Shown: positions 35,903 to 57,922 of the stretch, in pieces
Numbering within the stretch: position 1 is the stretch's first letter
Layout of the letters: every line of letters begins with the position of its first letter
Assembly: GCA_014584695.1 (NCBI GenBank)
Contig: JACTMI010000008.1
Span: 15,333-79,332, forward strand
Direction: 5' to 3'
DNA: 64,000 bases
Source: Acidobacteriota bacterium
GTDB taxonomy: Bacteria; Acidobacteriota; Thermoanaerobaculia; Multivoradales; JAGPDF01
Position numbers and translations under genes: made by a program
Notes under the pieces: model-generated
Told to the model about the DNA's origin: nothing
Seen by the model: the letters and a program-made list of their open reading frames with translations, nothing else
Database searches by the model: none

Positions 35903-35993
35903 CCGCAACCCCAGCGGCCGCCGACGGGGATCCCGTCCGCTCGAATCAAGCAGAGAGCGAAACAGAAGAAGAAGAAAATGGAAAAGAAAGCAA

Positions 35994-36366
35994 AGCTCCA
36001 GTTAAGGGCAGGTGTAGGGAGCGATCTCGTTGAGGCGAAGCGGTTTGCCGTCCGTGAAGAAGAGAAGAGCAACAGCTCCAGTTAAGGGTAGGTGAATGGA
36101 ACGTCCTCGCTGAGCCGAAGCGGTCTGCCGTCCGTGAAGAAGAGAAAAGCAACAGCTCCAGTTAAGGGTAGGTGAGTGGAGCGTCCTCGCTGCGGCGAGG
36201 CGGATTGCCGTCCGAGAAGAAGAGAAGAGGCAACAGCTCCAGTTAAGGGTAGGTGAGTGGAGCGTCCTCGCTGCGGCGAGGCGGATTGCCGTCCGTGAAG
36301 AAGAGAAAAGGCAACAGCTCCAGTTAAGGGTAGGTGAGTGGAGCGTCCTCGCTGCGGCGAGGCGTG
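35994..36366. repeat. Tandem repeat locus 2: about 4.6 copies of an 80-81-bp unit (agctccagttaagggtaggtgagtggagcgtcctcgctgcggcgaggcggattgccgtccgtgaagaagagaaaaggcaac)
   Basis: Units start at 35994, 36074, 36154, 36235 and 36316. It shares the AGCTCCA(T/G)T(G/A)AAGGG core and the GAAGAAGAGAAAAG motif with loci 1 and 3. A period that is not a multiple of 3 argues against coding. Confidence 0.8.
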
Positions 36367-36446: not shown

Positions 36447-36720
36447 CCCCCCTCCCCCTCCCCCTCCCCCTCCCCCTCCCCTTCCCCTTCCCGTTCCCCT
36501 TCGCCTGCCCCTTCTCATTCCCCATTCCGCTCCTTTTCCCACCTTTCACCGCCCCCGCTACCGCGCAGCTCAACTCAGTCAACAACGCCCCCCCTCCCAC
36601 CCCTTCTATGGAAGCCTTTTCTTTTCTCTTCTTTTCTCTTCTCCGCTCTTCTCTTCTCTTCTCTTCTCTGCGCCTCTCCTGACTCTTCTTCCACCTCCTT
36701 CCCTTACTCTCTTCTCGCTC
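36447..36720. repeat. Polypyrimidine tract of about 275 nt beginning with (CCCCCT)5(CCCCTT)2; a G-rich quadruplex-capable complement on the minus strand
   Basis: The plus strand is >90% C/T from 36447 to ~36720. It also contains an inverted partial copy of the repeat core (cccttctatggaagc = reverse complement of gcttccatagaaggg) at about 36598-36680. Confidence 0.85.
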
Positions 36721-43124: not shown

Positions 43125-43904
43125 TTGCAATACCGGGTCGGCATCGTGTTGTCGGGCGGCGGTAGCCGCGGGATCGCCCACATCGGCGTGCTGGCGGCGC
43201 TCGCGGAGCGGGGCATCGCGCCGGAATGTGTCTCCGGCACCAGTGCCGGCGCGATCGTCGGCGCGCTCTACGGGGGCGGGCTCACGCCCGACCAGATGCT
43301 CGACTTCTTCGCCGAGAAGAGCCCGTTCCGTTTCTCCAAGCTCGCCTTCGGCAAGCCCGGCGTCTTCGACACCGAGAAGATCGTCCCCGACTTCCTGGCG
43401 ACCTTCCCTGACGACTCGTTCGAAGCCCTCGGCCGCCGCCTGTTCGTCGCCGCGACCGACCTGGTGCGCGCCCGGCTCGAGATCTTCGCCTCCGGGCCCC
43501 TGGTCCGGCCCGTGATCGCCTCGTCGTCGGTGCCGGCGCTGTTTTCGCCGACGCTCGTCGACGGCCGCCCCTTCGCCGACGGCGGCATCATCGACAACTT
43601 TCCGGTCAACCCCCTGCTCGGCCTCTGCGACGTCATCCTCGGCGTCTACGCCAGCCCCATCTCCCCCGTGGCCCGTGAAGACCTCTCGAGCTCGCTCGCC
43701 ATCTCCCAACGGGCCTACGAGATCGGCGTCTATTACGCGTCGCGGCGCAACTTCCACCACTGCGACCTGGTCCTCCGCCTCGAAGGCCTGCGCCAGTTCG
43801 GCCTCTTCGACGTCAAGAAGCGCCAGGAGATCTTCGACCTCGGCTATCGCGCCACGCAGGCGCGCATGGAGGAGATCCTGCGCGTGGTCGATCCCGTCCG
43901 CTGA
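43125..43904 (+). CDS. Patatin-like phospholipase
   Basis: Oxyanion GGGSRG and nucleophile elbow GTSAG, plus catalytic DGG (FADGGIIDN). TTG start after GGGAGCGAGG; the start position is uncertain. Confidence 0.75.
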   Translation: MQYRVGIVLSGGGSRGIAHIGVLAALAERGIAPECVSGTSAGAIVGALYGGGLTPDQMLDFFAEKSPFRFSKLAFGKPGVFDTEKIVPDFLATFPDDSFEALGRRLFVAATDLVRARLEIFASGPLVRPVIASSSVPALFSPTLVDGRPFADGGIIDNFPVNPLLGLCDVILGVYASPISPVAREDLSSSLAISQRAYEIGVYYASRRNFHHCDLVLRLEGLRQFGLFDVKKRQEIFDLGYRATQARMEEILRVVDPVR

Positions 43905-44100
43905 GCCCTGGGTCGGTCCACCCCCCCCCGACCGGGACCGCGCGCCGCGAGCTGTCACTCTCGCGCGTTGGTTGACGTACTATCCGTCGTAGGAACGAAT
44001 CCAACAGCGGGCAGCGAGCAGGCCGAAGCTCGGCTCCCGGCGCGTGGCCGGGAACGAGCGGGATCTGCCCCCCGCTCGGCTCGTTCGAGGGGGACTCGCC

Positions 44101-44364
44101 ATGGGCACACTGGGGACCATTCTGACCGTAGTCGCCAGCATCGGCATGTTGATCTTCGGCATCCAGATCCTGATCCACGCCTTCAAGACCAGCATCGGCT
44201 GGGGACTCGCCAGCCTCCTCATCCCCTTCGTCATCTTCGTCTATGTGGCGAAGAACTGGGAGGGGACGAAGACGCCGTTCCTGCGCTGGCTGGCCTGCTT
44301 GCCGGTGATGGTGATCGGCTGGGCGCTCAGCTTCTGGGGTGCCTTCTCGGCCGCGGGCGGCTGA
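44101..44364 (+). CDS. Small membrane protein (2-3 TM helices, about 87 aa)
   Basis: MGTLGTILTVVASIGMLIFGIQILIHAFKTSIGWGLASLLIPFVIFVYVAKNW.... The internal ATG at 44101 is preferred over the GTG at 44044. Confidence 0.5.
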   Translation: MGTLGTILTVVASIGMLIFGIQILIHAFKTSIGWGLASLLIPFVIFVYVAKNWEGTKTPFLRWLACLPVMVIGWALSFWGAFSAAGG

Positions 44365-44435
44365 GCACGGGCTCGAGGACGGTCTCGACGTCGCCGGCGT
44401 GCGGCCGAGCACTTCGCCGCACGCCGGCATCCGTC

Positions 44436-44499
44436 TTGACGCGCTGCGTCGTACCCTATAGGTCAGTTGGTTGACGTAAGCGTCAAGTGGCGCTAGGGT
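44436..44499 (+). promoter_or_regulatory. merR-family promoter/operator: TTGACG-N17-TAGGGT with the perfect palindrome TTGACGtaagCGTCAA (44471-44486) plus an upstream imperfect half-site copy (44436-44452)
   Basis: The palindrome overlaps the -35 and spacer, 40 nt upstream of the MerR ATG. A related 13-mer gttggttgacgta also occurs at 43966-43978. Confidence 0.5.
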
Positions 44500-44527
44500 C
44501 GGTTGCCGGAGGGGATGCCGACCCGCG

Positions 44528-44953
44528 ATGGCCCACCACGCCGATCCCGACCGGCTGTTCAGCATCACCGAGCTCTCCCAGGAGCTCGGCGTCACCCCCC
44601 GCGCCATCCGCTTCTACGAAGTCAAGGGGCTGCTCGATCCCAAGCGGGCCGGCTCCACCCGCGTCTACACCCACCGGGACCGCGGCCGCCTGCAGATCAT
44701 CTTGCGCGGCAAGCGGCTCGGCTTCTCGCTCGCCCTGATCCAGAAGTACCTCGACCTCTACGACGCCGACCCGACCCGCAAGGCGCAGCTGCCCCACTTG
44801 CTCGCCGGCGCCCGGCAGCGGATCGCGGAGCTCGAAGCCCAACGCGCCGACCTCGAGCTCACCCTCGAGGAGCTGCGCGAGATCGAACAGATGACGCTCG
44901 AGGCGATGCGCCGGCTGGGCGTGCGCGAGCCGACGCGCGGCAGCGGCCCCTGA
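44528..44953 (+). CDS. MerR-family transcriptional regulator (LiuR-like; predicted regulator of the downstream fatty-acid/branched-chain acyl-CoA degradation operon)
   Basis: N-terminal HTH FSITELSQELGVTPRAIRFYEVKGLL and a C-terminal coiled-coil. Located immediately upstream of the thiolase / HAD-ECH / ACAD genes. Confidence 0.75.
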   Translation: MAHHADPDRLFSITELSQELGVTPRAIRFYEVKGLLDPKRAGSTRVYTHRDRGRLQIILRGKRLGFSLALIQKYLDLYDADPTRKAQLPHLLAGARQRIAELEAQRADLELTLEELREIEQMTLEAMRRLGVREPTRGSGP

Positions 44954-45030
44954 GGCGCTGGCGGCGACGGGCGACCGGACCAGCGCGGGGGCCGTGACGC
45001 CGCCGCACCCACGATGGAGGTGGAGACACC

Positions 45031-46167
45031 ATGAAGAACGTCGTCATCGCCGGCTACGTCCGGTCCCCGTTCACTCCCGCCAAGAAGGGCGAGCTGACCA
45101 AGGTCCGCCCCGACGACCTCGCCGCGCAGACCGTGCGCGCGCTGATCGAGCGCACCGGCGTCGCCGCCGAGGACATCGAGGACCTGCTTCTCGGCTGCGC
45201 CTTCCCCGAAGGGGAGCAGGGCTTCAACGTCGCCCGGCTGACCGCTTTCCTCGCCGGCCTGCCGGTCGGCGTCGCGGGCGCCACGATCAATCGCTTCTGC
45301 GGCTCCTCGATGCAGGCCATTCACACCGCCGCGGGAGCGATCCAGATGAACGCCGGCGAGGTCTTCGTCTGCGCCGGCGTGGAGTCGATGACCCGGGTGC
45401 CCATGGGCGGCTTCAACCCGCTGCCCAACCCGGCGCTCATGGCGAGCTACCCGCAGGCCTTCGCCGCGATGGGCGAGACCGCCGAGAATCTGGCCCGCAA
45501 GTACGGCATCTCGCGCGCCCGCCAGGAACAGTTCGCGCTCGAGTCGCAACAGAAGACCGCCGCCGCGATCGCCGCCGGTCGCCTCGACGGCGAGATCGCG
45601 CCGATCGTCTGGAAAGGGGGCACGGTCACCCGGGACGGCTGCCCACGCCCCGACACCACTCTCGAGGGCCTGGCCAACTTGAAGCTCGCCTTCGACGACA
45701 CCGGCACCGTCACCGCTGGCACCTCCTCGCCGGTCACCGACGGCGCCGCGGCGACCCTGGTCTGCTCCGAGGCTTACGCCGAGCGCAAGGGGCTCGTGCC
45801 GCTGGCGCGCATCCGCAGCTTGGCCGTCAGCGCTTGCCAACCCGAGATCATGGGCATCGGCCCGGTCGCCTCGACGCGCAAGGCGCTCGACCGCGCCGGG
45901 CTCACGCTCGACCAGATCGACCTGATCGAGCTCAACGAGGCGTTCGCCGCCCAGTCGCTCGCCTGCATCGACGAGCTGGGGCTCGACCCGGCCAAGGTCA
46001 ACCTCGACGGCGGCGCCATCGCGCTCGGCCACCCGCTGGGCGCCACCGGCGCCCGGATCACCGGCAAGGCGGCCCAGCTGCTCGCCCGCGAGGGCAAGCG
46101 CTACGCCCTCGCCACGCAGTGCATCGGCGGCGGGCAGGGCATCGCGACGATTCTCGAGGCGGTCTGA
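45031..46167 (+). CDS. Acetyl-CoA C-acyltransferase (3-ketoacyl-CoA thiolase)
   Basis: 378 aa. Active-site Cys motif INRFCGSSMQAIH; C-terminal GHPLGATGAR and CIGGGQG thiolase signatures. RBS GGAGGTGGAG. Confidence 0.9.
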   Translation: MKNVVIAGYVRSPFTPAKKGELTKVRPDDLAAQTVRALIERTGVAAEDIEDLLLGCAFPEGEQGFNVARLTAFLAGLPVGVAGATINRFCGSSMQAIHTAAGAIQMNAGEVFVCAGVESMTRVPMGGFNPLPNPALMASYPQAFAAMGETAENLARKYGISRARQEQFALESQQKTAAAIAAGRLDGEIAPIVWKGGTVTRDGCPRPDTTLEGLANLKLAFDDTGTVTAGTSSPVTDGAAATLVCSEAYAERKGLVPLARIRSLAVSACQPEIMGIGPVASTRKALDRAGLTLDQIDLIELNEAFAAQSLACIDELGLDPAKVNLDGGAIALGHPLGATGARITGKAAQLLAREGKRYALATQCIGGGQGIATILEAV

Positions 46168-46169
46168 AC

Positions 46170-48503
46170 ATGGGCGCCATCGAGAGAGTCGGCGTCCTCG
46201 GAGCCGGCGTCATGGGAGCCGGCATCGCCGCCCACGTCGCCAACGCCGGCATTCCGGTCGTGCTGCTCGACATCGTGCCCGCGGGCGCGACCGACCGGAA
46301 CGCCCTCGCCAACGGGGCGCTCGAGAAGCTCAAGAAGGCGAAACCGGCGCCGCTCATGTCGGCGTCCTTCGCCCGGCGCATCACCCCGGGAAACCTCGAG
46401 GACGACCTCGGCCTGCTCGCCGACTGCGACTGGATCGTCGAGGCGGTGGTCGAGCGCGTGGACGTCAAGCAGGCGGTCTACCGCGCCGTCGACGCCGTCC
46501 GCAAGCCGGGCTCGATCGTTTCGACCAACACTTCGACCATCCCGCTGGCCAAGCTGGTCGCGGGCACCCCCGCCGGCTTCGCCGCCGATTTCCTGGTCAC
46601 CCACTTCTTCAATCCCCCCCGCTACATGCGGCTGCTCGAGCTGGTCACCGGTCCGGCGACCCGGACGGATGCGGCCGCGGCGGTGCGCGGCTTCTGCGAT
46701 CACCGCCTGGGCAAGAGCGTGGTCGTGTGCAAGGACACGCCCGGTTTCATCGCCAACCGGATCGGCACCTTCTGGATCGAAGCGGCGACCCGCGAGGCGC
46801 TCGCGCTCGGCCTGACGGTCGAGGAGGCCGACGCGGTGGCCGGCAAACCGTTCGGCTTTCCGAAGACCGGGGTCTTCGGCCTGATGGACCTGGTCGGCAT
46901 CGACCTCGGCCCACACATCGCCGCCTCGCTGCTGGCGACGCTGCCGGCCGACGACGCCTACCGCGCGATCCACGAAGATCGCGAGCTGATCCGGAAGATG
47001 ATCGCGGCGGGGTTGACTGGCCGCAAGGGCAAGGGGGGCTTCTACCGCCTCGACATCTCGGGTGGACGGAAGGAGAAGCTGGCGATCGATCTCGCCACCG
47101 GCGAGTACCGGCCGCAGCGCGAGGCGCGGCTGGCCAGCTTGGCCGCGGCCAGGAGCGGCGGGCCCCGCGCGCTGCTCGAGCACCCGGACCGCGGCGGCCG
47201 TTATGCCTGGGCCATGCTCTCGCGGACGCTCGCCTACGCGGCGTCGCTGGTGCCGGCGATCGCCGACGAGATCGCCGCCGTCGACGAGGCGATGCGCTGC
47301 GGCTACAGCTGGGATCTCGGTCCCTTCGAGCTGCTCGACAAGATCGGTCCCGCCTGGTTCGCCGGGCGGCTCGCCGCCGAGGGGAGGCCGGTGCCGCCGC
47401 TGCTCGCCGCGGTCGGCGCGGGGAGCTTCTACCGGGTCGAGTCGGGCCGGCTCGAGCAGCTCGCGCCCGACGGGAGCTACCGCGAAGTCCGCCGCCCCGA
47501 CGGCGTCCTCCGGCTCGCCGATCTGGCGCGCGCCGGGAAGCCGGTCGCGAAGAACTCCTCGGCCAGCCTCTGGGATCTCGGCGACGGCGTCCTCTGCCTC
47601 GAGTTCCACACCAAGATGAACGCCCTCGAGGAAGGGGTGCTGCGGCAGCTGGCCAAAGCGCTCGGCCTGATCGACGGCACGCGTTTCCGCTCGCTGGTGA
47701 TCCACAACGAGGCCAGCAATTTCTCGGTCGGCGCCAACATCGGCATCGCGCTCTTCGCCGCCAACGTCGGGCTGTGGCCGGAGATCGAAGCGACGATCGC
47801 CGCCGGTCAGGAGACCTTCCGCGCCCTGAAGTACGCGCCTTTCCCGGTGGTCGGAGCGCCGGCCGGCATGGCGCTCGGTGGCGGCTGCGAGATCCTGCTC
47901 CACTGCGACGCGGTGCAGGCGCACGCCGAGACCTACATGGGTCTGGTCGAGGCGGGGGTCGGGGTGATCCCGGGCTGGGGCGGCTGCAAGGAGATGGTCA
48001 CCCGCTGGCAGACGAACCCGAAGCGCCCGGGCGGGCCGATGCCCGGCGTCGCCCAGGTCTTCGAGACCATCTCGACCGCCAAGGTCTCGACCTCGGCGGA
48101 AGAGGCTCGCGAGCTGCTCTTCCTGCGCCCGGGCGACGGCATCACCATGAACCGCGACCGCCTGCTCGCCGACGCCAAGGCCAAGGCACTCGAGCTCCTC
48201 GCCGCCGGCTACCGGCCGCCGGCGCCGGTCGAAATCTCGCTGCCCGGCCCGGCCGGGCGCGCAGCGCTCGACATGGCGGTGGCCGGCTTCCGCGCCAGCG
48301 GCGCGGCGACGCCGCACGACGTGGTGGTGGCCGGCCGGCTCGCCCGCGTCGTCACCGGCGGCGATACCGACCCGACCGAGAGCGTCACCGAGGACGACCT
48401 CTCCCGCCTCGAGCGCGAGGCCTTCCTCGAGCTCGTCCGCACGCCGGCGACGCTGGCGCGCATCGAACACATGCTGGAAACCGGCAAGCCCCTCCGGAAC
48501 TAG
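46170..48503 (+). CDS. Bifunctional 3-hydroxyacyl-CoA dehydrogenase (N-terminal) / enoyl-CoA hydratase (C-terminal) fatty-acid oxidation protein
   Basis: NAD-binding VGVLGAGVMGAGIA; 3HCDH HFFNPPRYMRLLE; the C-terminal crotonase fold (VIHNEASNFSVGANI, VVGAPAGMALGGGCEILLHCD). Confidence 0.85.
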   Translation: MGAIERVGVLGAGVMGAGIAAHVANAGIPVVLLDIVPAGATDRNALANGALEKLKKAKPAPLMSASFARRITPGNLEDDLGLLADCDWIVEAVVERVDVKQAVYRAVDAVRKPGSIVSTNTSTIPLAKLVAGTPAGFAADFLVTHFFNPPRYMRLLELVTGPATRTDAAAAVRGFCDHRLGKSVVVCKDTPGFIANRIGTFWIEAATREALALGLTVEEADAVAGKPFGFPKTGVFGLMDLVGIDLGPHIAASLLATLPADDAYRAIHEDRELIRKMIAAGLTGRKGKGGFYRLDISGGRKEKLAIDLATGEYRPQREARLASLAAARSGGPRALLEHPDRGGRYAWAMLSRTLAYAASLVPAIADEIAAVDEAMRCGYSWDLGPFELLDKIGPAWFAGRLAAEGRPVPPLLAAVGAGSFYRVESGRLEQLAPDGSYREVRRPDGVLRLADLARAGKPVAKNSSASLWDLGDGVLCLEFHTKMNALEEGVLRQLAKALGLIDGTRFRSLVIHNEASNFSVGANIGIALFAANVGLWPEIEATIAAGQETFRALKYAPFPVVGAPAGMALGGGCEILLHCDAVQAHAETYMGLVEAGVGVIPGWGGCKEMVTRWQTNPKRPGGPMPGVAQVFETISTAKVSTSAEEARELLFLRPGDGITMNRDRLLADAKAKALELLAAGYRPPAPVEISLPGPAGRAALDMAVAGFRASGAATPHDVVVAGRLARVVTGGDTDPTESVTEDDLSRLEREAFLELVRTPATLARIEHMLETGKPLRN

Positions 48504-48526: not shown

Positions 48527-50317
<1,791 letters not shown>

Positions 50318-50372: not shown

Positions 50373-50418
50373 GGGGACAGGCACGTAATAAGTATTGCGT
50401 GCCTGTCCCCGTTTCTCG
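50373..50418 (+). terminator. Rho-independent terminator hairpin, potentially bidirectional
   Basis: ggggacaggcacg-taataagtattg-cgtgcctgtcccc (13-bp perfect stem) followed by gtttctcg. On the opposite strand it is preceded by attttgtg (U-rich). It lies 56 nt after the ACAD stop. Confidence 0.7.
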
Positions 50419-50909: not shown

Positions 50910-53291
50910 TCAGGGCTTGGGCTCTCCCGGCAGCCAGCGGATCAGGGCGGGCACGAGGACCAGGGCGGCCACCATGTTCATGACGAACAGGAAGCAGAGC
51001 AGGATGCCCATATCGGCCTGGAACTTGAGCGGCGAGATGATCCAGGTCGACACCGCCAGCCCGAGCGTGACGCCGGTGAACAGCACGCCGTTGCCGGTTA
51101 TCTCGAGCGCCTTCTGGTAGACGAGCTTGACGTCGGCGTGGGTGTGGAACAGCGAGCGGAAGCGGCTGTAGATGTAGATGCCGTAGTCGACGCCGATGCC
51201 GACCCCGAGCGCCACCACCGGCAGCGTGCCGACCTTGAGGCCGATCTCGAGGAACGCCATCAGCGCGTAGGCGAGCAGCGACACCAGCGAGAGCGGGATC
51301 AGGATGCACACCGCCGCGCGGATCGACCGGAACGTGATGATGCACAGCAGCGCCACCGCCCCGAACACCCACGCCAGCATCGGGAACTGGGCCGCGCTCA
51401 CCGCCTCGTTGGTCGCCGCCATGACGCCGACGTTGCCGGTGGCGAGCTGGAACGACACCTCCGAGTTGCCGTGCGTGGCCTCGAACCGCTTGACCTCGGC
51501 GACGATCTCGTTGATGGTGTCGGCCTTGTGATCGCGAGTGAACAGCATCACCGGCATCACGCTGCAGTCGGAGTTGAGCAGCCCGCTCGAGGTCGGCACG
51601 TAGGCCACCGACTGAGTCAGCACCGATTCGTTGCGGGAGAGCTCCCGCCACTTCAGGCTCCCCTCGTTCCAGCCCGCGCCGATGACCTTGGCGACGCCGG
51701 GCAGGTCGAGCGTCGACTGCACGCCCTCGAGGTTCGCCATCCGCCACGAGAACTCGTCGATCGTGGTCATCACGGAGTGGTCGACGCAACCCTCGGGCCG
51801 GCTCACCGAGATGACGTTCAGGATGTCGACCCCGATCGAGAAGCGCGAAGTCACGACGTCGGTGTCACGGTTGTAGCGCGACTCGGCCCGCAGCTCCGGC
51901 ACGCCGCGGTGCAGGTCGCCGATCTTGACGTCGTTGCTCTTCCACCAGCCGAAGACGAACAGCGCCAGCGCCACCAGCACGATGGCGAGCGCCGGCTTGC
52001 CGTCCGCGACCACCGAGAAGCGCCGCCACAGCCGCTCCATGTGCCGCGCGCGCCGGTGCAGCTTGTCGCGGTAATTCGCGCGGTACTTGACGAACGAGAG
52101 GATGACCGGCAGCAGGATCAGATTGGTGAGCAGGATCATCGCCACACCCAGGCTCGCCGAGACGGCGATCTCCTGGATGACGCGAATCTCGATCACCAGA
52201 ATGGTCAAGAAGCCGATCGTGTCGGTCAGGAGCGCGATGCCGCCGGGCACCAGCAGGCGCCGAAAAGCCTTTCGCGCGGCCTGCTCGGGCGTGGCGCCGT
52301 CGAAGATCTCGGAGCCGCTCGCGCTCACCATCTGCACGGCGTGGCTGACCGCGATCGCCGGCACCAGGAACGGCACCAGGATCGACATCGGGTCGATGCC
52401 GAAGCCGAGCAGCGGCAGGAGACCGAGCTGGAAGACCACCGCCACCAGCGCGCTGGTCAGCACCGCGACCGCCAGCCGCAGCGATTGGGCGTAGAGGGCG
52501 ACCAGGACGCCGGCCAGCAGCAGCGCGATGCCGAAGAACATCAGCACGCGCCGGACGCCGTCGGCGATGTCGCCCATCACCTTGGCGAAGCCGATGATGT
52601 GGACGGTCACCGCCGAGCCGGGCACGAACTCGGCGTCGAACTGCTGGCGCACCTTCTCCTCGAGCCGGGACGAGACCTGCAGCGGGTCGAGCTTCTCGCC
52701 CGTGGTCGGGTCGACCTCGAGCAGTTGGGCGCTGATGATCGCGCCGCTGAAGTCGTTGGCCACCAGCCGGCCGACGATGCCCGCCTTGAGGATGTTGCGG
52801 CGCACCGCCTCGAGCCCCTCCTCGGTGGGCTCGAAGTCGTCCGGGATGACGTTGCCGGCGGCGATGCCGTCCTCCACCACCTCCGTGTAGCGGACGTTGG
52901 GGGTGAACAGCGACTGCACACGGCTACGGTCGACACCGGGCAGGAAGAAGACCTCGTCGGTGGCCCGCTTGAGCGCGTCGAAGAACTCCGGCGTGAACAT
53001 CTCGCCGTCCTTCGCGATCAGCGCCACCAGCACCCGGTTGGCGCCGCCGAACTCCTCCTGGTACTGCAGGAAGGTCGACATGTAAGGGTGCTTGAGCGGC
53101 AGCAGCTTGGTGAAGCCGGCGTCGATGCGCAGCCGCGAGGCCGACCACCCCATGACCACGGTCGCGAGCGCGAACAGCACCAGCACCGTGGCCCGGTGGC
53201 CGAAGATCAGGCGCTCGAGGAAGACACCGAAGCTCCCGCCGTTCGGGGCGCGCTCGGAGGCCTGCTCGGGACCCGGCGTCGGACCGCTCAT
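50910..53291 (-). CDS. RND-superfamily exporter of the MMPL/HpnN-like type (793 aa)
   Basis: Two 6-TM bundles, each preceded by a large periplasmic domain. No AcrB-type motif; typical MMPL architecture. The start overlaps the upstream stop (ATGA). Confidence 0.8.
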   Translation of the reverse strand: MSGPTPGPEQASERAPNGGSFGVFLERLIFGHRATVLVLFALATVVMGWSASRLRIDAGFTKLLPLKHPYMSTFLQYQEEFGGANRVLVALIAKDGEMFTPEFFDALKRATDEVFFLPGVDRSRVQSLFTPNVRYTEVVEDGIAAGNVIPDDFEPTEEGLEAVRRNILKAGIVGRLVANDFSGAIISAQLLEVDPTTGEKLDPLQVSSRLEEKVRQQFDAEFVPGSAVTVHIIGFAKVMGDIADGVRRVLMFFGIALLLAGVLVALYAQSLRLAVAVLTSALVAVVFQLGLLPLLGFGIDPMSILVPFLVPAIAVSHAVQMVSASGSEIFDGATPEQAARKAFRRLLVPGGIALLTDTIGFLTILVIEIRVIQEIAVSASLGVAMILLTNLILLPVILSFVKYRANYRDKLHRRARHMERLWRRFSVVADGKPALAIVLVALALFVFGWWKSNDVKIGDLHRGVPELRAESRYNRDTDVVTSRFSIGVDILNVISVSRPEGCVDHSVMTTIDEFSWRMANLEGVQSTLDLPGVAKVIGAGWNEGSLKWRELSRNESVLTQSVAYVPTSSGLLNSDCSVMPVMLFTRDHKADTINEIVAEVKRFEATHGNSEVSFQLATGNVGVMAATNEAVSAAQFPMLAWVFGAVALLCIITFRSIRAAVCILIPLSLVSLLAYALMAFLEIGLKVGTLPVVALGVGIGVDYGIYIYSRFRSLFHTHADVKLVYQKALEITGNGVLFTGVTLGLAVSTWIISPLKFQADMGILLCFLFVMNMVAALVLVPALIRWLPGEPKP

Positions 53292-54262
53292 GGCTCACCT
53301 CCGATTCGCCTGACGCCGCCTTCGCCGAAGAGCATCAGCTCTCGGCCGTCGCGGCGCGCGAGCACCGCCGAGGCGCCCTTGTTGTCCGGTAGCTCCTCGC
53401 CGCGGAAGGTGCGGCCGCCGTCCGAGCTCCTCAGCACGGCACCGGCGAGGCCGACCACCGCGATGCGCCCGCCGCCGAGATCGACGGCGTCGGTGAGGGT
53501 CGCGACCGTCCCGGTCTCGACCGCCGTCCAGGTCCCGCCCCGGTCTTCCGAGCGGAACAGGTTGCCGCGCAGGCCGAAGGCGAGCAGCGCGCCGTCCTCG
53601 AGCGGCTGCATGCCGAAGAAGGAGCCGATGTAGGGGGACTCGAGGCGCCGCCAGCTCTCGCCACCGTCGCCCGAGTGGTAGAGGTTGCCCGCTTCCGCCG
53701 CCAGGTACAGATCGCTACCGACCGCCGCGACGTGGTTGAGATGGAAGTCGTCTTCTTCGATCCGGCTCTCCGCCCAGCTGTCGCCACCGTCCGCGGTGGC
53801 GAGGATCACGCCATAGGCGCCCACCGCCAAACCCCGGTTCTCGTCGGCGAACCAGACATCGAGCAGCGGCCGCTCGTTGTCGGGTTCGTGGCGGACCCGC
53901 TCCCAGGTCGTGCCGCCATCGCGCGTGCGGAGAATCGTTTCGTCGTGGCCGACCACCCAACCGAGCCGCTCGTCGTGCATCCAGACGGCGGTCAGCAGGG
54001 CGCGCGAGGGGACTCGCGCCTGGCTCCAGCTCGCGCCGTCGTCGCGCGAGAGCAGGACGTGGCCGCGCTCGCCGACCGCGACGACGAGATCGCCCCGGCG
54101 GACGGCGTCGACCAGCAGCGAGGCCGCCGCGAGGGGCGCCGGGATCGACCACTCGCCTTCGGGAATCGGCTCCTCGGCCCGGACCGGCGCGCCATCGAGC
54201 GCTCCGCCTCCGAGGGCGAGCGCCAGGGACAGGACAGGGGAAAGAGCGAGGCGGGCGCTCAT
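53288..54262 (-). CDS. BNR/Asp-box repeat beta-propeller protein (Ycf48-like photosystem II stability/assembly factor homolog), secreted
   Basis: 324 aa from MSARLALSPVLSLALALGGGA. Six SxDxGxTW-type Asp-boxes (SRDDGASWS, TRDGGTTWE, TADGGDSWA, SGDGGESWR, SEDRGGTWT, SSDGGRTFR). Confidence 0.8.
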   Translation of the reverse strand: MSARLALSPVLSLALALGGGALDGAPVRAEEPIPEGEWSIPAPLAAASLLVDAVRRGDLVVAVGERGHVLLSRDDGASWSQARVPSRALLTAVWMHDERLGWVVGHDETILRTRDGGTTWERVRHEPDNERPLLDVWFADENRGLAVGAYGVILATADGGDSWAESRIEEDDFHLNHVAAVGSDLYLAAEAGNLYHSGDGGESWRRLESPYIGSFFGMQPLEDGALLAFGLRGNLFRSEDRGGTWTAVETGTVATLTDAVDLGGGRIAVVGLAGAVLRSSDGGRTFRGEELPDNKGASAVLARRDGRELMLFGEGGVRRIGGEP

Positions 54263-54339
54263 CGGACGCGCCCGCCTCGAACGAAAGCTCCCCTCGCGGG
54301 GGGCCGGCGTCGGCCGGCCGGCCCCCGACGAGGCGCGGT

Positions 54340-55698
54340 TCAACGCACGCCCTCTCGACGCAGCGCGTCGGGGGTGTAGTCGGCTTCGGTCCGCTTGATG
54401 TTGAAGTCGTGCGGCGGGTTCTCGCTGAACAGCGCCATCACGAGGTAGCGGCCGGCCTGCAGGTCGACGTGCGACTCCGCCGAGGTCCACACCGCGGGCA
54501 CGTTGTAGAAGTTCATGACGTGACCCTCCGAGACCCGCCAGAGCTGGTCGCGGTTGTCGTACTGGTCGACCAGCAGGATGTGCCAGCTGTCCTCGTCGAC
54601 GTAGAAGGTGCGGCGCTTGTAGACGTGGCGCTCGTTCGGCTTGAGCGTCGCGTCGACCACCCAGACCCGGTGCAGCTCGTAGCGCAGCAGGTCGGGGCTC
54701 ATGTGCAGCGGGGTCAGGATGTCCTTGAACTTCACCGACGGATCCTGCAGCTTGTAGGCGTTGTAGGGGACGTAGATCTCCTGGCGGCCGACGAGCCGCC
54801 AGTCGTAGCGGTCCGGCGCGCCGTTGAACATGTCGAGCTGGTCGCTGGTGCGCATGTTGTCGGCCGCCGTGCCCGGGTTGTCGTAGGCGACCTGGGGCGC
54901 GCGCCGGACGCGGCGCTGGCCGGGGTTGTAGAGCCAGGCGTCGCGCGGCTGGGTGACCTGGTTCAGGGTCTCGTGCACCAGCAGGATGCCGCCCGCCAGC
55001 CGCGCCGGCGAGGTCACTTCCTGCTTGAACAGCGCGACGCGATTGCGCAACGCCGCTTCGGTCATCCCCGGCAAGTGGTAGAGGAGCATGGTCTCCTCGT
55101 CGAACTGCACCATGGTGTACTGGCCGCCGCGCGTCGGCGCCGCCTGGGCGACCTTGCGCAGGACGGTGTCGCCGCGGTAGCGCAGCAGATGGTTCCAAAT
55201 CACCTGCACGCCCTCGGTCGGGATCGGGAACGGGATGCCCGCGAGCGCGCCGGTGACGCCGTTGCCGCCGGGCGCGAGCTGCGCCGTGCCGGCGATGGCC
55301 TTGGTCGCGTCGTAGATGCGCTGCGGCACGGCGGCGCTGCGCCGCGTCGGGTAGATGTTCATCTTGAACGACGGATAGGTCGCGAGCATCGCCTTGTGCC
55401 CTTCGGAGAGCTTGGCGGCGTGGGCGCTCGCGTTCTTGCCGTCGATCGTGACCACGATCTTGTCGGCGGCGTAGGGGTCGACGTAGTGCTTGCCCGGCAC
55501 GTAGCCCGCGGGCGGCTGGGTGATGCCGCCCTCCCAGGCCGGGATGCTGCCGTCGGCGTTGGCGGCCTTGATGCCGCCGAGCGGCGTCAGCTCGGTGCCG
55601 AGCTTGGCGACTTCGGCGGGCGGCAGCGCGGCGAACGCGAGGCCCGCGAAGGCGAGCACCGCGGAGGAGAGGATCAGCCGGGAAACTCGGTTGCGCAT
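54340..55698 (-). CDS. DUF1329 family (LolA-like) periplasmic protein
   Basis: 452 aa with a signal peptide. A conserved family layout (…YDWRLVGRQEIYVPYNAYKL…RVWVVDATLKPNERHVYKRRTFYVDEDSW…). Confidence 0.7.
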   Translation of the reverse strand: MRNRVSRLILSSAVLAFAGLAFAALPPAEVAKLGTELTPLGGIKAANADGSIPAWEGGITQPPAGYVPGKHYVDPYAADKIVVTIDGKNASAHAAKLSEGHKAMLATYPSFKMNIYPTRRSAAVPQRIYDATKAIAGTAQLAPGGNGVTGALAGIPFPIPTEGVQVIWNHLLRYRGDTVLRKVAQAAPTRGGQYTMVQFDEETMLLYHLPGMTEAALRNRVALFKQEVTSPARLAGGILLVHETLNQVTQPRDAWLYNPGQRRVRRAPQVAYDNPGTAADNMRTSDQLDMFNGAPDRYDWRLVGRQEIYVPYNAYKLQDPSVKFKDILTPLHMSPDLLRYELHRVWVVDATLKPNERHVYKRRTFYVDEDSWHILLVDQYDNRDQLWRVSEGHVMNFYNVPAVWTSAESHVDLQAGRYLVMALFSENPPHDFNIKRTEADYTPDALRREGVR

Positions 55699-55711
55699 GG
55701 GATGTCTCTCC

Positions 55712-57547
55712 TCAGAAGGAGTACTTGACGTTGGCCGCGACGAAGTCGCGATCGTTGATCAGGTTGTACCGCCCGGCGCCCATGTACTGGGTGTAGGACA
55801 GGTCCCACTCGAGATTGATCCGGTACTGGAAACCGAAACCGATGGTCAGCGCCTTGCGGCCGTCGATGAAGTTGCCGCCCGGGCCCGGCGAGATGCCGTC
55901 GACGTCGTGCGCCCAGGAGAAGCGCGGCGACAGGTTCACCGGTCCGAAGGCGTTGTTGTAGTCGAGCCGCCCGGCGATCACGTAACCCCAAGCCGTGTCG
56001 GTCGGGAAGGCCGAAGCGGGCTCGGTGCCGGGTTGGACGCCGGCCTGCTGGTGGATCGGGTTGCCGCTGGTGTAGGTGCCGGGAGCCTCGAGGCGGAGGA
56101 CCGACTGCGCCGGCAGGTCGTGCACCTTGCTCCAGCCCGCTTCGCCGACGAGCACGAACTGGTCGGCGCCGAAGGCGCGGGCGAAGACCTTGGTCGCGGT
56201 CAGCTGCACCTGGGTGGTGTCGAAGCGGCGGTAGCCGGCGATCTCCTCGCTGAACCCGAAACCGCCCAGCTGGCCGGTCGAGGCGAGCAGGCCGCCGAGC
56301 TGGCGCAGTGGCGCGAGTTGGGGAATCGCGGGCAGCAGCCGCAACGGCGACAGCGCGGCGTAGAGCAACTCGACGTCGTCGACCTGGAGCGGCACGTCCT
56401 GGCGGTGCGATACCTCGCCCTGGAGCGCGATGCCGCTGCCGCCGAGCTGGGCATTGAAGCTCAAGCCGCAGAGCGAGATGTCCTCGGGGTACTCGAGGAA
56501 GTACTGGGCGGTGGCGGCATAGTTGCCTTGCGCCAGGATCCCGGCCGCGGTGCCGGTGCGGGCCATGATCACCGGCAAACGGCTGTTGTAGGAGAGGTAG
56601 TAGAGGCCGAACTCGGTGCCGCCGAGACCGGGCGCGAAGAGGCGGAAGGCGGCGCCGTACTGGCCGCTGTCGCCAGCCTCGCGGTTGGGACCGCGCGGGA
56701 CCGCGACGCCCACCGGATTGCCCGGGATGTTGAAGCCCACCGGAATCGAGTCCGGCGCGGCGCCGAAGCCGAGCATCACCTTGGTGGCGCCCTCGCCCGC
56801 CAGGTCGGTGGCGCTGAAGTAGCTGCCGACCGGGTCGATCTTGGTCTCCTCCCAGTCGAACTGGTAGTAGGCCTCGAACGAGGTGTTGTCGGAGGGCTTC
56901 AGCGAGACGAGGACCGCGCCGACCGGCAGCAGCGCGTCGCGCAGCTCCGAGCCGGGGACGCGCAGGGCGGAGACGTCGACCGGGTTGATGGCGTTGATGC
57001 CGCCCTGGATGAAGGTGCTTTCGCCCCAGTTGATGACCTGGCGCCCGGCGCGGATCTCGGCCGGTCGCGGGCCCAGGTTGAAGCGGTACCAGAGGAAGGC
57101 GTCGCGGATCTCGGCGCGGCTGCCGACCCGCTCCTTGGCCTCGTCGGAGAGCGGCGTGCGCGCCCGGTCCCCCTTCTCGTTCTCGTGGTCGTAGAAGGCG
57201 AAGCCGCGCACGAAGCCGCCGAAGCCCTTGTAGCTGAACTGGAACTCACTCGTCCACTTGACCGCGTTGCTGGCGATGCCGGTCTCGTAGTTCTGGTTGC
57301 CGTCGTCGCCGTTGACCGAGAAGGCCGTGCCGCCGGCGGCGCGGCCGATGATCCGTGGATCCGGGTCGTCGAGCCGGTAGAGCAGGCCGTAGGAGAGGGT
57401 GTTACCCCAGCTCCACTTGAAGTCGCCCTGCTGGCCGCCGACCGCTGCGACCGGCGCGGCACAGAGAGCGACGAGGGCGAAGAGGGCGAGGAGCGGCGCC
57501 GCGCGCCCGCGCCGCCTGAGGACTGCGTTCTGGACCGGCTCGTTCAT
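55712..57547 (-). CDS. DUF1302 family outer-membrane beta-barrel-like protein
   Basis: 611 aa from MNEPVQNAVLRRRGRAAPLLALFALVALCAAPVAA. Alternating amphipathic beta-strands; C-terminal ...AANVKYSF (a terminal aromatic typical of OMPs). Confidence 0.7.
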   Translation of the reverse strand: MNEPVQNAVLRRRGRAAPLLALFALVALCAAPVAAVGGQQGDFKWSWGNTLSYGLLYRLDDPDPRIIGRAAGGTAFSVNGDDGNQNYETGIASNAVKWTSEFQFSYKGFGGFVRGFAFYDHENEKGDRARTPLSDEAKERVGSRAEIRDAFLWYRFNLGPRPAEIRAGRQVINWGESTFIQGGINAINPVDVSALRVPGSELRDALLPVGAVLVSLKPSDNTSFEAYYQFDWEETKIDPVGSYFSATDLAGEGATKVMLGFGAAPDSIPVGFNIPGNPVGVAVPRGPNREAGDSGQYGAAFRLFAPGLGGTEFGLYYLSYNSRLPVIMARTGTAAGILAQGNYAATAQYFLEYPEDISLCGLSFNAQLGGSGIALQGEVSHRQDVPLQVDDVELLYAALSPLRLLPAIPQLAPLRQLGGLLASTGQLGGFGFSEEIAGYRRFDTTQVQLTATKVFARAFGADQFVLVGEAGWSKVHDLPAQSVLRLEAPGTYTSGNPIHQQAGVQPGTEPASAFPTDTAWGYVIAGRLDYNNAFGPVNLSPRFSWAHDVDGISPGPGGNFIDGRKALTIGFGFQYRINLEWDLSYTQYMGAGRYNLINDRDFVAANVKYSF

Positions 57548-57922
57548 GGAGACCCCCAATGCTCGGGAAGATGCGCTGGCCCTCGAGCGCGGACCAGCGG
57601 GCTGGCAGCGGAACGTAACGGCGACTTCCACGCACCGACCCCGCTTCGTCGCGGCCTCTCGAGGTCGCGGCGGCGGATCGGAAAATCGTCGTGCGCGTCG
57701 ACCGGGCTCGCGCCCGGTTCGACCCAAGCTGGAAGCTCATCCCTGGCAAGGACTCCTGTCCGGGAACCTAGCGACCCGGCTCGTCCCCTCGCGCCATCGC
57801 ATGAGGCGGGGACATCCTACCCGCAGGGGTGGCGCGACGGAAAGCAAGGTGTGACCGCCGGGTCTCCCGCCCGAGCCGGCGCCGGGCCGGGCGCGAGCCG
57901 GGTGGTGAGAAGATCGGTGGCG

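Follow-up and report, generated by a model that had tools for sequence, protein, structure and literature searches.

The window analysed here, by which we mean the whole stretch of 64 kb, carries on its plus strand, in this order, genes for a patatin-like phospholipase and a small membrane protein, a hairpin, a merR gene, genes for a thiolase, a HAD/ECH protein and an ACAD, and a second hairpin. The genes and hairpins are listed below.

Ends at 43904, plus strand: patatin-like phospholipase gene.
44101–44364, plus strand: gene for a membrane protein of 87 aa, with no family match.
44393–44428, plus strand: perfect hairpin with a 13-bp stem and a 10-nt loop (inverted repeat, 100% complementary).
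44528–44953, plus strand: LiuR-type MerR-family regulator, 141 aa, no cysteine.
45031–46167, plus strand: acetyl-CoA C-acyltransferase (thiolase, FadA-like; TIGR01930, 434 bits; Thiolase_N and Thiolase_C).
46170–48503, plus strand: 3-hydroxyacyl-CoA dehydrogenase/enoyl-CoA hydratase (HAD/ECH) fusion, 777 aa (3HCDH_N, 3HCDH and ECH_1).
48527–50317, plus strand: long acyl-CoA dehydrogenase (ACAD), 596 aa (Acyl-CoA_dh_N, _M, _1 and Acyl-CoA_dh_C).
50373–50410, plus strand: hairpin GGGGACAGGCACG-N12-CGTGCCTGTCCCC with a T-rich tail (inverted 12-mers at 50374–50385 and 50398–50409).

The regulator is encoded by the first gene of the operon, and its predicted targets downstream (thiolase, HAD/ECH and ACAD) are acyl-CoA catabolic. 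The 777 aa fusion protein resembles the Staph-type FadB in its architecture. The hairpin at 44393–44428 probably terminates transcription of the small membrane-protein gene before the merR promoter is reached, and the hairpin at 50373–50410 is the probable terminator of the operon.

The Pfam models MerR_1, MerR-DNA-bind and MerR (PF13411, PF09278 and PF00376) match the regulator across residues 11–118 of its 141 aa. The protein consists of a MerR-type winged helix-turn-helix followed by a dimerisation helix, and its length falls within the range of LiuR-type regulators (about 125–145 aa). In comparisons with the NCBIfam equivalogs it scored below every cut-off and gave no match to a LiuR equivalog, the scores with the MerR, CueR, ZntR, CadR and SoxR models being 29–53 bits as against cut-offs of 117–168. 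A search of the PDB retrieved only generic MerR, CueR and TipA relatives (E about 1e-8). The homologues are all named generically, as “MerR family”, in their source records. The regulator of the window lacks Cys, and the alignment of the family has no conserved Cys either; RGKRLGFSL and LYD blocks, common also to a Vibrio protein, are invariant in it. A scan for homologues, with one genome per species, yielded 55 loci, of which 11 were from Thermoanaerobaculia MAGs (79–89% identity over the best aligned segment) and about 33 from Alphaproteobacteria (51–67% identity). The high identities to the former make an origin of the window in this acidobacterial class very probable. The gene order merR-thiolase-HAD/ECH-ACAD is common to almost all of the scanned loci and is conserved in those numbered L001–L044.

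The following elements of the upstream regions are referred to below; those that are palindromic or inverted repeats have no strand assigned.

43967–43979, plus strand: upstream copy of the 13-mer GTTGGTTGACGTA, a lone left half-site located 122 bp before the ATG (44101) of the gene for the small membrane protein.
44439–44451, no strand: GC-rich 5-3-5 inverted repeat GACGC-GCT-GCGTC, the core of a “second imperfect copy” of the operator proposed earlier.
44451–44466, no strand: putative auxiliary operator O2, GTACCCTATAGGTCAG, with its centre 20 bp before that of O1.
44471–44486, no strand: putative primary operator O1, TTGACGTAAGCGTCAA, a 16-bp dyad (family consensus TTGACGTATACGTCAA).
44471–44476, plus strand: −35 hexamer TTGACG, which is also the left half-site of O1.
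44494–44499, plus strand: −10 hexamer TAGGGT, following TTGACG after a 17-bp spacer.

An earlier note on this DNA had described a perfect 6-4-6 palindrome in front of merR, and the sequence TTGACGTAAGCGTCAA at 44471–44486 is indeed such a palindrome and the single perfect match to TTGACG-N4-CGTCAA within the 64-kb window. Perfect 6-4-6 palindromes are common in this window of 71% GC content (55, as compared to 43 ± 7 in shuffled sequences, with only four of the 55 having A/T-rich arms), and the significance of O1 therefore derives from its conservation among relatives and not from its symmetry. With a symmetrised weight matrix constructed from 38 related loci, from which the window was left out, O1 was the top match of the entire 64 kb (44471, 22.3 bits), followed by the position 44451 (12.0 bits) and by a third match of 4.0 bits; no further operator sites scoring above 4 bits were found by the matrix scan of the window besides O1 and O2. 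The position orthologous to O1 is filled in all Thermoanaerobaculia loci and in many of the alphaproteobacterial loci. Upstream of merR, every Thermoanaerobaculia locus contains TTGACGTATACGTAAA, TTGACGTATAGGTAAA, TTGACGTAAACGTCAA or the perfect TTGACGTATACGTCAA, and these variants indicate that the true consensus is a 16-bp palindrome without a spacer, in which the half-site TTGACGTA is directly followed by TACGTCAA. The O1 sequence of the window differs from this consensus only in its central TAAG, the centre in the family being TATA or TAAA.

The promoter elements read by the earlier note, viz. a −35 that is itself the left half-site, a 17-bp spacer and TAGGGT as the −10, were all confirmed in the sequence, and their arrangement is conserved in relatives. 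O1 spans the −35 and the first 10 bp of the spacer, for which 17 bp is an optimal length; the −35 begins 8.5 bp before the centre of the dyad and the −10 lies 15.5 bp beyond it. A scan of the region 43850–45100 with sigma-70 and terminator consensus models found nothing, and this promoter was not called because TAGGGT matches TATAAT at only three of the six positions; in place of the consensus scan, the promoter is supported by the relatives, in which TAnnnT is conserved at a constant distance. By the E. coli consensus TAGGGT is a weak −10. In all Thermoanaerobaculia loci a TAnnnT motif (TAGGGT, TAAGGT, TAACGT, TAGCGT, TAGGTT, TAGATT or TACCCT) is found 7 nt after the palindrome (8 nt in L008), and among the relatives the distance from the −35 to the conserved TAnnnT is fixed at 17–18 bp, with TATAAT itself occurring in L040. 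In many alphaproteobacterial loci the dyad is followed after 7–8 nt by TATAAT, TATGGT or TATGCT and after another 7 nt by the ATG of merR, a distance which implies a leaderless mRNA. A scan of 43800–44600 against Rfam for leader RNAs or riboswitches gave no match.

The second-best matrix match of the window, O2, lies exactly 20 bp from O1, i.e., two helical turns upstream and on the same face of the DNA, and it has a single good half-site, the promoter-proximal one. When ±70 bp were considered, the strongest secondary site of the 38 loci lay at −20 in 21 cases, at +20 in five and at −40 in two, which for the −20 phasing corresponds to a binomial p of about 1e-33, the loci not being independent of each other. 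In three of four separately fetched loci of the same clade (L063–L065, outside the matrix set), the primary site (26–28 bits) and the −20 site (13–15 bits) are the two top matches of each locus. The −20 position scores below 0 in many Thermoanaerobaculia loci (L002–L010). Within the clade of the window the promoter-proximal half of O2, TACGTCAG, is kept and the 4-bp linker varies (TTGG, TCAC, GGTG, CTGC or TGTA). The matrix rank of this site together with the recurrent 20-bp phasing points to a second operator at 44451–44466. The earlier note had instead placed a second imperfect copy 35 bp upstream of O1 (start to start); the sequence TTGACGCGCTGCGTC is present there, at 44436–44450, but with a matrix score of −28 bits it is not a site, and for 44431, the position in phase at −40, the score is −45 bits. 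By the matrix prediction the real auxiliary site is 44451–44466 and not 44436. In L001, L063 and L065, too, short GC-rich inverted repeats, which differ in sequence, are found at this place next to O2.

In about 50 related loci from several phyla, the 16-bp palindrome heads either merR-thiolase-HAD/ECH-ACAD or fadL-fadD-merR-fadA-fadB-acd. In loci of the Acetobacteraceae type the dyad is absent before merR and is found 1.8–3.2 kb upstream, where it heads the fadL (Toluene_X family) and/or fadD (AMP-binding) genes that precede merR. The dyad thus follows the head of the operon, as expected of a real control site, and its presence at the head of fadL/fadD ties the system to the uptake and activation of long-chain fatty acids. 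A check for enrichment of the palindrome near catabolic genes, which the earlier note had suggested for the genome, was run across metagenomes, and consensus-like sites were found to be enriched beside acyl-CoA genes. The metagenome scan, in which TTGACGTANNCGTCAA was used as the query, returned 80 loci. Matches with a consensus-like centre (at least 27 bits; 24 sites with 41 flanking ORFs) were flanked by four ACAD, two AMP-binding (acyl-CoA synthetase-type), two MerR, one thiolase and one ETF-QO ORFs, and also by MaoC, SCP2 and MeaB/B12-binding proteins, whereas none of the 42 ORFs flanking the matches below 21 bits was an ACAD, AMP-binding, MerR, thiolase or ETF-QO protein. Although the picking of ORFs was crude, this contrast (10/41 vs. 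0/42; Fisher p = 0.0005) is clear.

The identification of the protein as a LiuR-type regulator heading a thiolase/HAD-ECH/ACAD operon, also made in the earlier note, is supported by these approximately 50 loci and by the motif found at a Vibrio liu cluster. The homologue from Vibrio sp. THAF191d (141 aa, 45% identity to the regulator of the window) heads genes for an ACAD, a carboxyltransferase and a methylglutaconyl-type hydratase, with divergent genes for a thiolase and methylmalonate-semialdehyde dehydrogenase (MMSDH), and this locus is the canonical liu/ivd (liuR-liuABC) arrangement. Its control region contains TTGACGTTTACGTAAG and TTTACGTTAACGTAAA, which score 22.1 and 20.2 bits, respectively, with the same matrix, and the occurrence of the same motif at the Vibrio liuR-liuABC genes indicates that the window contains a regulator and operator of the LiuR type, of a fatty-acid subtype. 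As for LiuR operators, a 16-bp palindrome with ACGT cores (TTKACGTWWACGTMAA) is found upstream of the regulator’s own gene. The apparent match to the published LiuR motif draws upon this comparison with the Vibrio locus, the sequence of the motif not being given in the papers on Shewanella, Proteobacteria, Rhodospirillum and Xanthomonas. In Azospirillum sp. B510, which is among the genomes of the published Proteobacteria regulon reconstruction, the merR-thiolase-HAD/ECH-ACAD operon (AZL_RS24805–24820) has one strong dyad of 22 bits, a second high score 6 bp away being the same site out of register. A 22-bp palindrome, TTGACGTTTACGTAAACGTCAA (26.6 bits), is found in Rubrobacter radiotolerans (Actinomycetota) upstream of merR-ACAD-AMP-binding genes, and it is followed by TACTCT at 17 bp. 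In Alphaproteobacteria, LiuR orthologues are reportedly predicted to control fatty-acid degradation. LiuR has been described as a repressor of the MerR family that acts on branched-chain amino-acid utilisation (PMC3223726), liuR itself is a regulon member in 90 genomes, and the predicted LiuR regulons include acdA/acdB/acdH and fadA/fadB/fadL (PMC5343134, supplement). An “ILV box” lies upstream of liuR in Rhodospirillum rubrum (PMC7238569), and the LiuR of P. aeruginosa is cited as the subject of an experimental study (Diaz-Perez et al., 2018). The proposal of the earlier note that the palindrome serves as the operator of the adjacent MerR-family regulator appears likely, as the three elements (regulator, operator and operon) occur together in about 50 loci of several phyla, and our reading of the sequences is that the neighbouring LiuR-type MerR-family regulator very probably binds at this palindrome.

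We consider it likely that O1 and O2 are operators at which the downstream LiuR-type regulator acts upon the promoter of an autoregulated beta-oxidation operon, and that it represses this promoter. According to this proposal, regulator dimers on O1, stabilised by the cooperative binding of a second dimer on O2, would keep region 4 of sigma-70 off the −35, and this exclusion would repress both the operon and the regulator’s own gene, an autorepression by promoter occlusion. A pathway metabolite, most plausibly an acyl-CoA, would then release the regulator when fatty acids become available. Repression, cooperativity and effector are all points that we infer from the sequences. The module of regulator, operator and operon would be either old or mobile, given that the same layout is seen in Acidobacteriota, Alphaproteobacteria and Actinomycetota. 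A more far-reaching reading, which we regard as possible but rather doubtful, is that fatty-acid-type LiuR proteins form phased arrays in which two or three dimers occupy one face of the helix at 20-bp intervals, that the regulator competes base-for-base with sigma region 4 because the strongest half-site is the −35 itself, and that the cassette has moved horizontally among Alphaproteobacteria, Acidobacteriota and Actinomycetota with its promoter intact.

Other explanations of these sequences differ in what they leave to the regulator. As TTGACG is close to the −35 consensus, its conservation would be expected from that alone, and the conserved sequence might thus be a mere strong promoter or the site of an unlinked factor, with the MerR protein regulating elsewhere. 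However, the right half (CGTCAA or CGTAAA) is a conserved mirror of the left half and yet has no promoter role, the same dyad is also found at places other than a −35 (Vibrio, Azospirillum and the O2 sites), it co-occurs with the regulator family across four phyla in which the flanking sequence has completely diverged, and where the operon has gained fadL-fadD the dyad has moved to the new operon head; this explanation is therefore highly improbable. The earlier note had envisaged activation by DNA distortion from a dyad within the spacer, as in the classic MerR switch, where the regulator is always bound to the promoter and the ligand causes untwisting or bending of the DNA that realigns the −35 and −10. 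The protein has the winged helix-turn-helix and coiled coil of MerR, its nearest solved relatives being MerR and CueR, the dyad overlaps the promoter, and members of the MerR family are typically bound in both states; they can also repress and activate from one site, and the position of the dyad alone hence does not exclude activation. However, the spacer is 17 bp here and 17–18 bp in all relatives as against 19–20 bp for distortion-dependent promoters, the dyad with its centre 8.5 bp from the start of the −35 covers this element and not the mid-spacer, and in Azospirillum the site seems instead to overlap the −10/+1 of a TTGACA-17-TACCTT promoter, a variable placement which fits occlusion. 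The three features of MerR activators, viz. the 19–20-bp spacer, a dyad centred in it and a C-terminal Cys, are all absent from this promoter and its regulator, the latter having no cysteines whatsoever. Due to the short spacers, the off-centre and variably placed dyad and the lack of a ligand-binding Cys, MerR-type activation is disfavoured, and with LiuR itself described as a repressor (PMC3223726), distortion from within the spacer is a poor fit and, as far as such sequence features tell, repression is more likely; we regard the classic switch as unlikely here.

The earlier note had also envisaged a small regulon in which the regulator, through the 13-mer GTTGGTTGACGTA, targets the small membrane-protein gene as well. 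The repeat is exact, occurring just twice in the window, at 43967–43979 (one position away from where it had been placed) and 44466–44478, where about 0.01 chance matches are expected, and two of the only three copies of the 8-mer half-site TTGACGTA in the 64 kb fall within these adjacent intergenic regions. However, what recurs is a half-site only. In the 16-mer at 43972 the left half is perfect (16.5 bits) but the right half scores −30.3 bits, giving a total of −13.8 bits and rank 356 in the window, and when extra spacings of 0–7 bp were tried the best alternative required +3 bp and was still weak (−2.9 bits), so that this copy was rejected as a canonical site. It has neither a −20 partner nor a TAnnnT at 17 bp, and the GTTGG shared by the two copies, which is no part of the operator, is not kept at other loci, a pattern that suggests a local copying of sequence rather than selection for binding. 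An origin of the pair by insertion with target-site duplication was rejected, as O2 precedes the second copy and not the first. The small membrane-protein and patatin genes adjoin merR only in near-identical contigs of the same species, whereas closer relatives (71–80% identity) have other genes upstream of merR (PGAP1-like, DoxX and proteins of unknown function). As these neighbours are species-specific, phylogenetic footprinting of the element at 43967 is impossible and its link to a regulon is unsupported. A strong hairpin also separates the small gene from the merR promoter, and with no other site in 64 kb the window offers no evidence of a regulon beyond the operon. Control of the membrane-protein gene by this regulator hence seems to us quite improbable, and the copy at 43967 is, by its sequence, probably not a functional operator.

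The switch proposed here, in which a LiuR-type repressor occludes the promoter of its own operon, is of a known kind and is found here in an acidobacterial genome. It assigns a predicted regulator, operator and promoter to a beta-oxidation operon of the Thermoanaerobaculia, a largely uncultured acidobacterial class for which we know of no experimentally defined promoters or regulons, and TTGACG-17-TAnnnT provides a useful anchor for the prediction of promoters in this class. The LiuR regulator/operator pair, which has so far come from the comparative genomics of Proteobacteria, extends with its sequence almost unchanged to at least the Acidobacteriota and Actinomycetota, and the usual second operator with its 20-bp phasing offers a testable indication that a MerR-family repressor may bind cooperatively. 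What is added is modest (a 16-bp consensus, a second operator phased at 20 bp and a distribution of the cassette that reaches past the Proteobacteria) and current understanding is not overturned. If the reading in terms of dimer arrays and a horizontally transferred cassette were true, it would represent an unusual architecture for the MerR family and a promoter-operator unit that works across phyla.

Among the known systems, GlnR and TnrA of Bacillus are MerR-family repressors that use two adjacent operators. They resemble the proposed system in being repressors of this family with neighbouring dyads on one promoter, a likeness which is an analogy only, and differ in their motif (TGTNAN7TNACA), their signal (glutamine synthetase) and their C-terminal architecture. 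Repressors of fad genes with operators overlapping promoters are also known in FadR of E. coli (GntR family), PsrA/FadP (TetR family) and FadR/YsiA of Bacillus and Thermus (TetR family), and in all of these repression is relieved by long-chain acyl-CoA or fatty acid. These proteins, which are non-orthologous replacements in the same pathway (PMC5343134), belong to protein families unrelated to that of the window regulator and have unrelated operator sequences. MerR, CueR, ZntR, SoxR and BmrR share the fold family and a dyad operator overlapping the promoter; however, their promoters have 19–20-bp spacers (20 bp for ZntR; PMC4486848) with the dyad centred in the spacer, and they sense ligands by means of a C-terminal Cys or a drug pocket, whereas the window protein has no Cys.

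The closest likeness is to LiuR. In Gamma- and Betaproteobacteria (P. aeruginosa PA2016; Shewanella and Vibrio) LiuR regulates the leucine/isovalerate (liu) and ivd genes, and like the window regulator it is a small Cys-free MerR-family protein encoded by the first gene of its operon; the 16-bp palindromic operator with ACGT cores and the RGKRLGFSL and LYD motifs are shared with the Vibrio protein. In contrast to these regulators, the targets in the window are a straight-chain beta-oxidation set (thiolase, HAD/ECH fusion and long ACAD), the operon lacks the methylcrotonyl-CoA carboxylase, HMG-CoA lyase and ivd genes of liu clusters, the host is an acidobacterium, and the operators are in tandem with 20-bp phasing. 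The alphaproteobacterial LiuR orthologues belong to another phylum, and in many of their loci the merR mRNA is apparently leaderless or the operon is extended by fadL-fadD, whereas in the window the leader is about 20 nt long and there is neither fadL nor fadD. They nevertheless share with the window the same gene order, the operator consensus and 51–67% protein identity, and many of these loci also have the dyad embedded in the −35 together with its −20 partner.

The 16-bp palindromic operator on the −35 element of the promoter of merR, the predicted LiuR-type regulator gene, is not invariant within the species. Position 44484, which is a C in the window, is a T in the same-species contigs L056 and L059-L061, and the resulting variant operator, TTGACGTAAGCGTTAA, scores 21.0 bits, as compared with 22.3 bits for the operator of the window, by the weight matrix built from 38 other loci. 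This C-to-T change stays inside the variation that the operator family tolerates. A poly-C run near 43921 also differs in length between the window and the same-species contigs.

The sequences that flank the operators show several kinds of repeats. A GC-rich short inverted repeat (stem 5–6 bp, loop 1–3 nt) directly adjoins the auxiliary operator on its 5' side. Of the five closest loci, four have such a repeat at the equivalent position, viz. the window (44439-44451), L001, L063, and L065. Its sequence is different in each of these four loci, and the changes among them have a compensatory look. This inverted repeat is out of phase with the operators. Additionally, a 13-mer is exactly duplicated at 43967-43979 and 44466-44478, where the identity reaches 5 bp (GTTGG) past the operator half-site. 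The first of these copies constitutes an orphan half-site located 5' of a species-specific gene for an 87-aa membrane protein, and the duplicate may have originated as a local sequence copy. In the Thermoanaerobaculia relatives L004, L005, L007, and L042, 13-nt tandem repeats with a GTGTCCC core (e.g., CCAACGTGTCCCG, 3–4 times) are found 5' of the merR promoter, 60–150 bp upstream of the operator; these repeats are absent in the window.

Three other features of the window are as follows.

35987-36364 (also 36448-36528 and 36619-36678): tandem repeat with a unit of 80/81 bp, 4.7 copies, 91% matches, together with the simple repeats that come after it
50373-50410: probable terminator hairpin of the beta-oxidation operon, built on GGGACAGGCACG
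50910-57727, minus strand: cluster comprising an MMPL/RND-type transporter, DUF1329 (LolA-like), and DUF1302, which faces the end of the beta-oxidation operon in convergent orientation

No operator-like site was associated with the transporter cluster. A long hairpin based on GGGACAGGCAC, similar to the probable terminator in the window, is present upstream of merR in a relative (L066/L067, about 2330-2420), and the GGGACAGGCACG/GGGACAGGCAC hairpins may represent a repeated element, either a terminator or a REP-like one, that is specific to the lineage. The tandem repeat lies in apparently non-coding DNA, for which no match was found in Rfam; the simple repeats CCCCTT (13 times) and TTCTC (10 times) come after it.

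In the alphaproteobacterial relatives L031, L037-L040, L043, L044, and L047, the merR ATG is located 7 nt past the −10 hexamer, a spacing which implies that the regulator mRNA at the operon head would be leaderless. Plasmid 1 of Rubrobacter radiotolerans (L191, 5946-5967) contains a perfect 22-bp palindrome, TTGACGTTTACGTAAACGTCAA, which consists of two 16-mers overlapping at an offset of 6 bp, and downstream of it are found merR and the genes for a 560-aa "isovaleryl-CoA dehydrogenase" and for an AMP-binding protein. This locus is the same predicted regulator/operator pair as that of the window, in the Actinomycetota.
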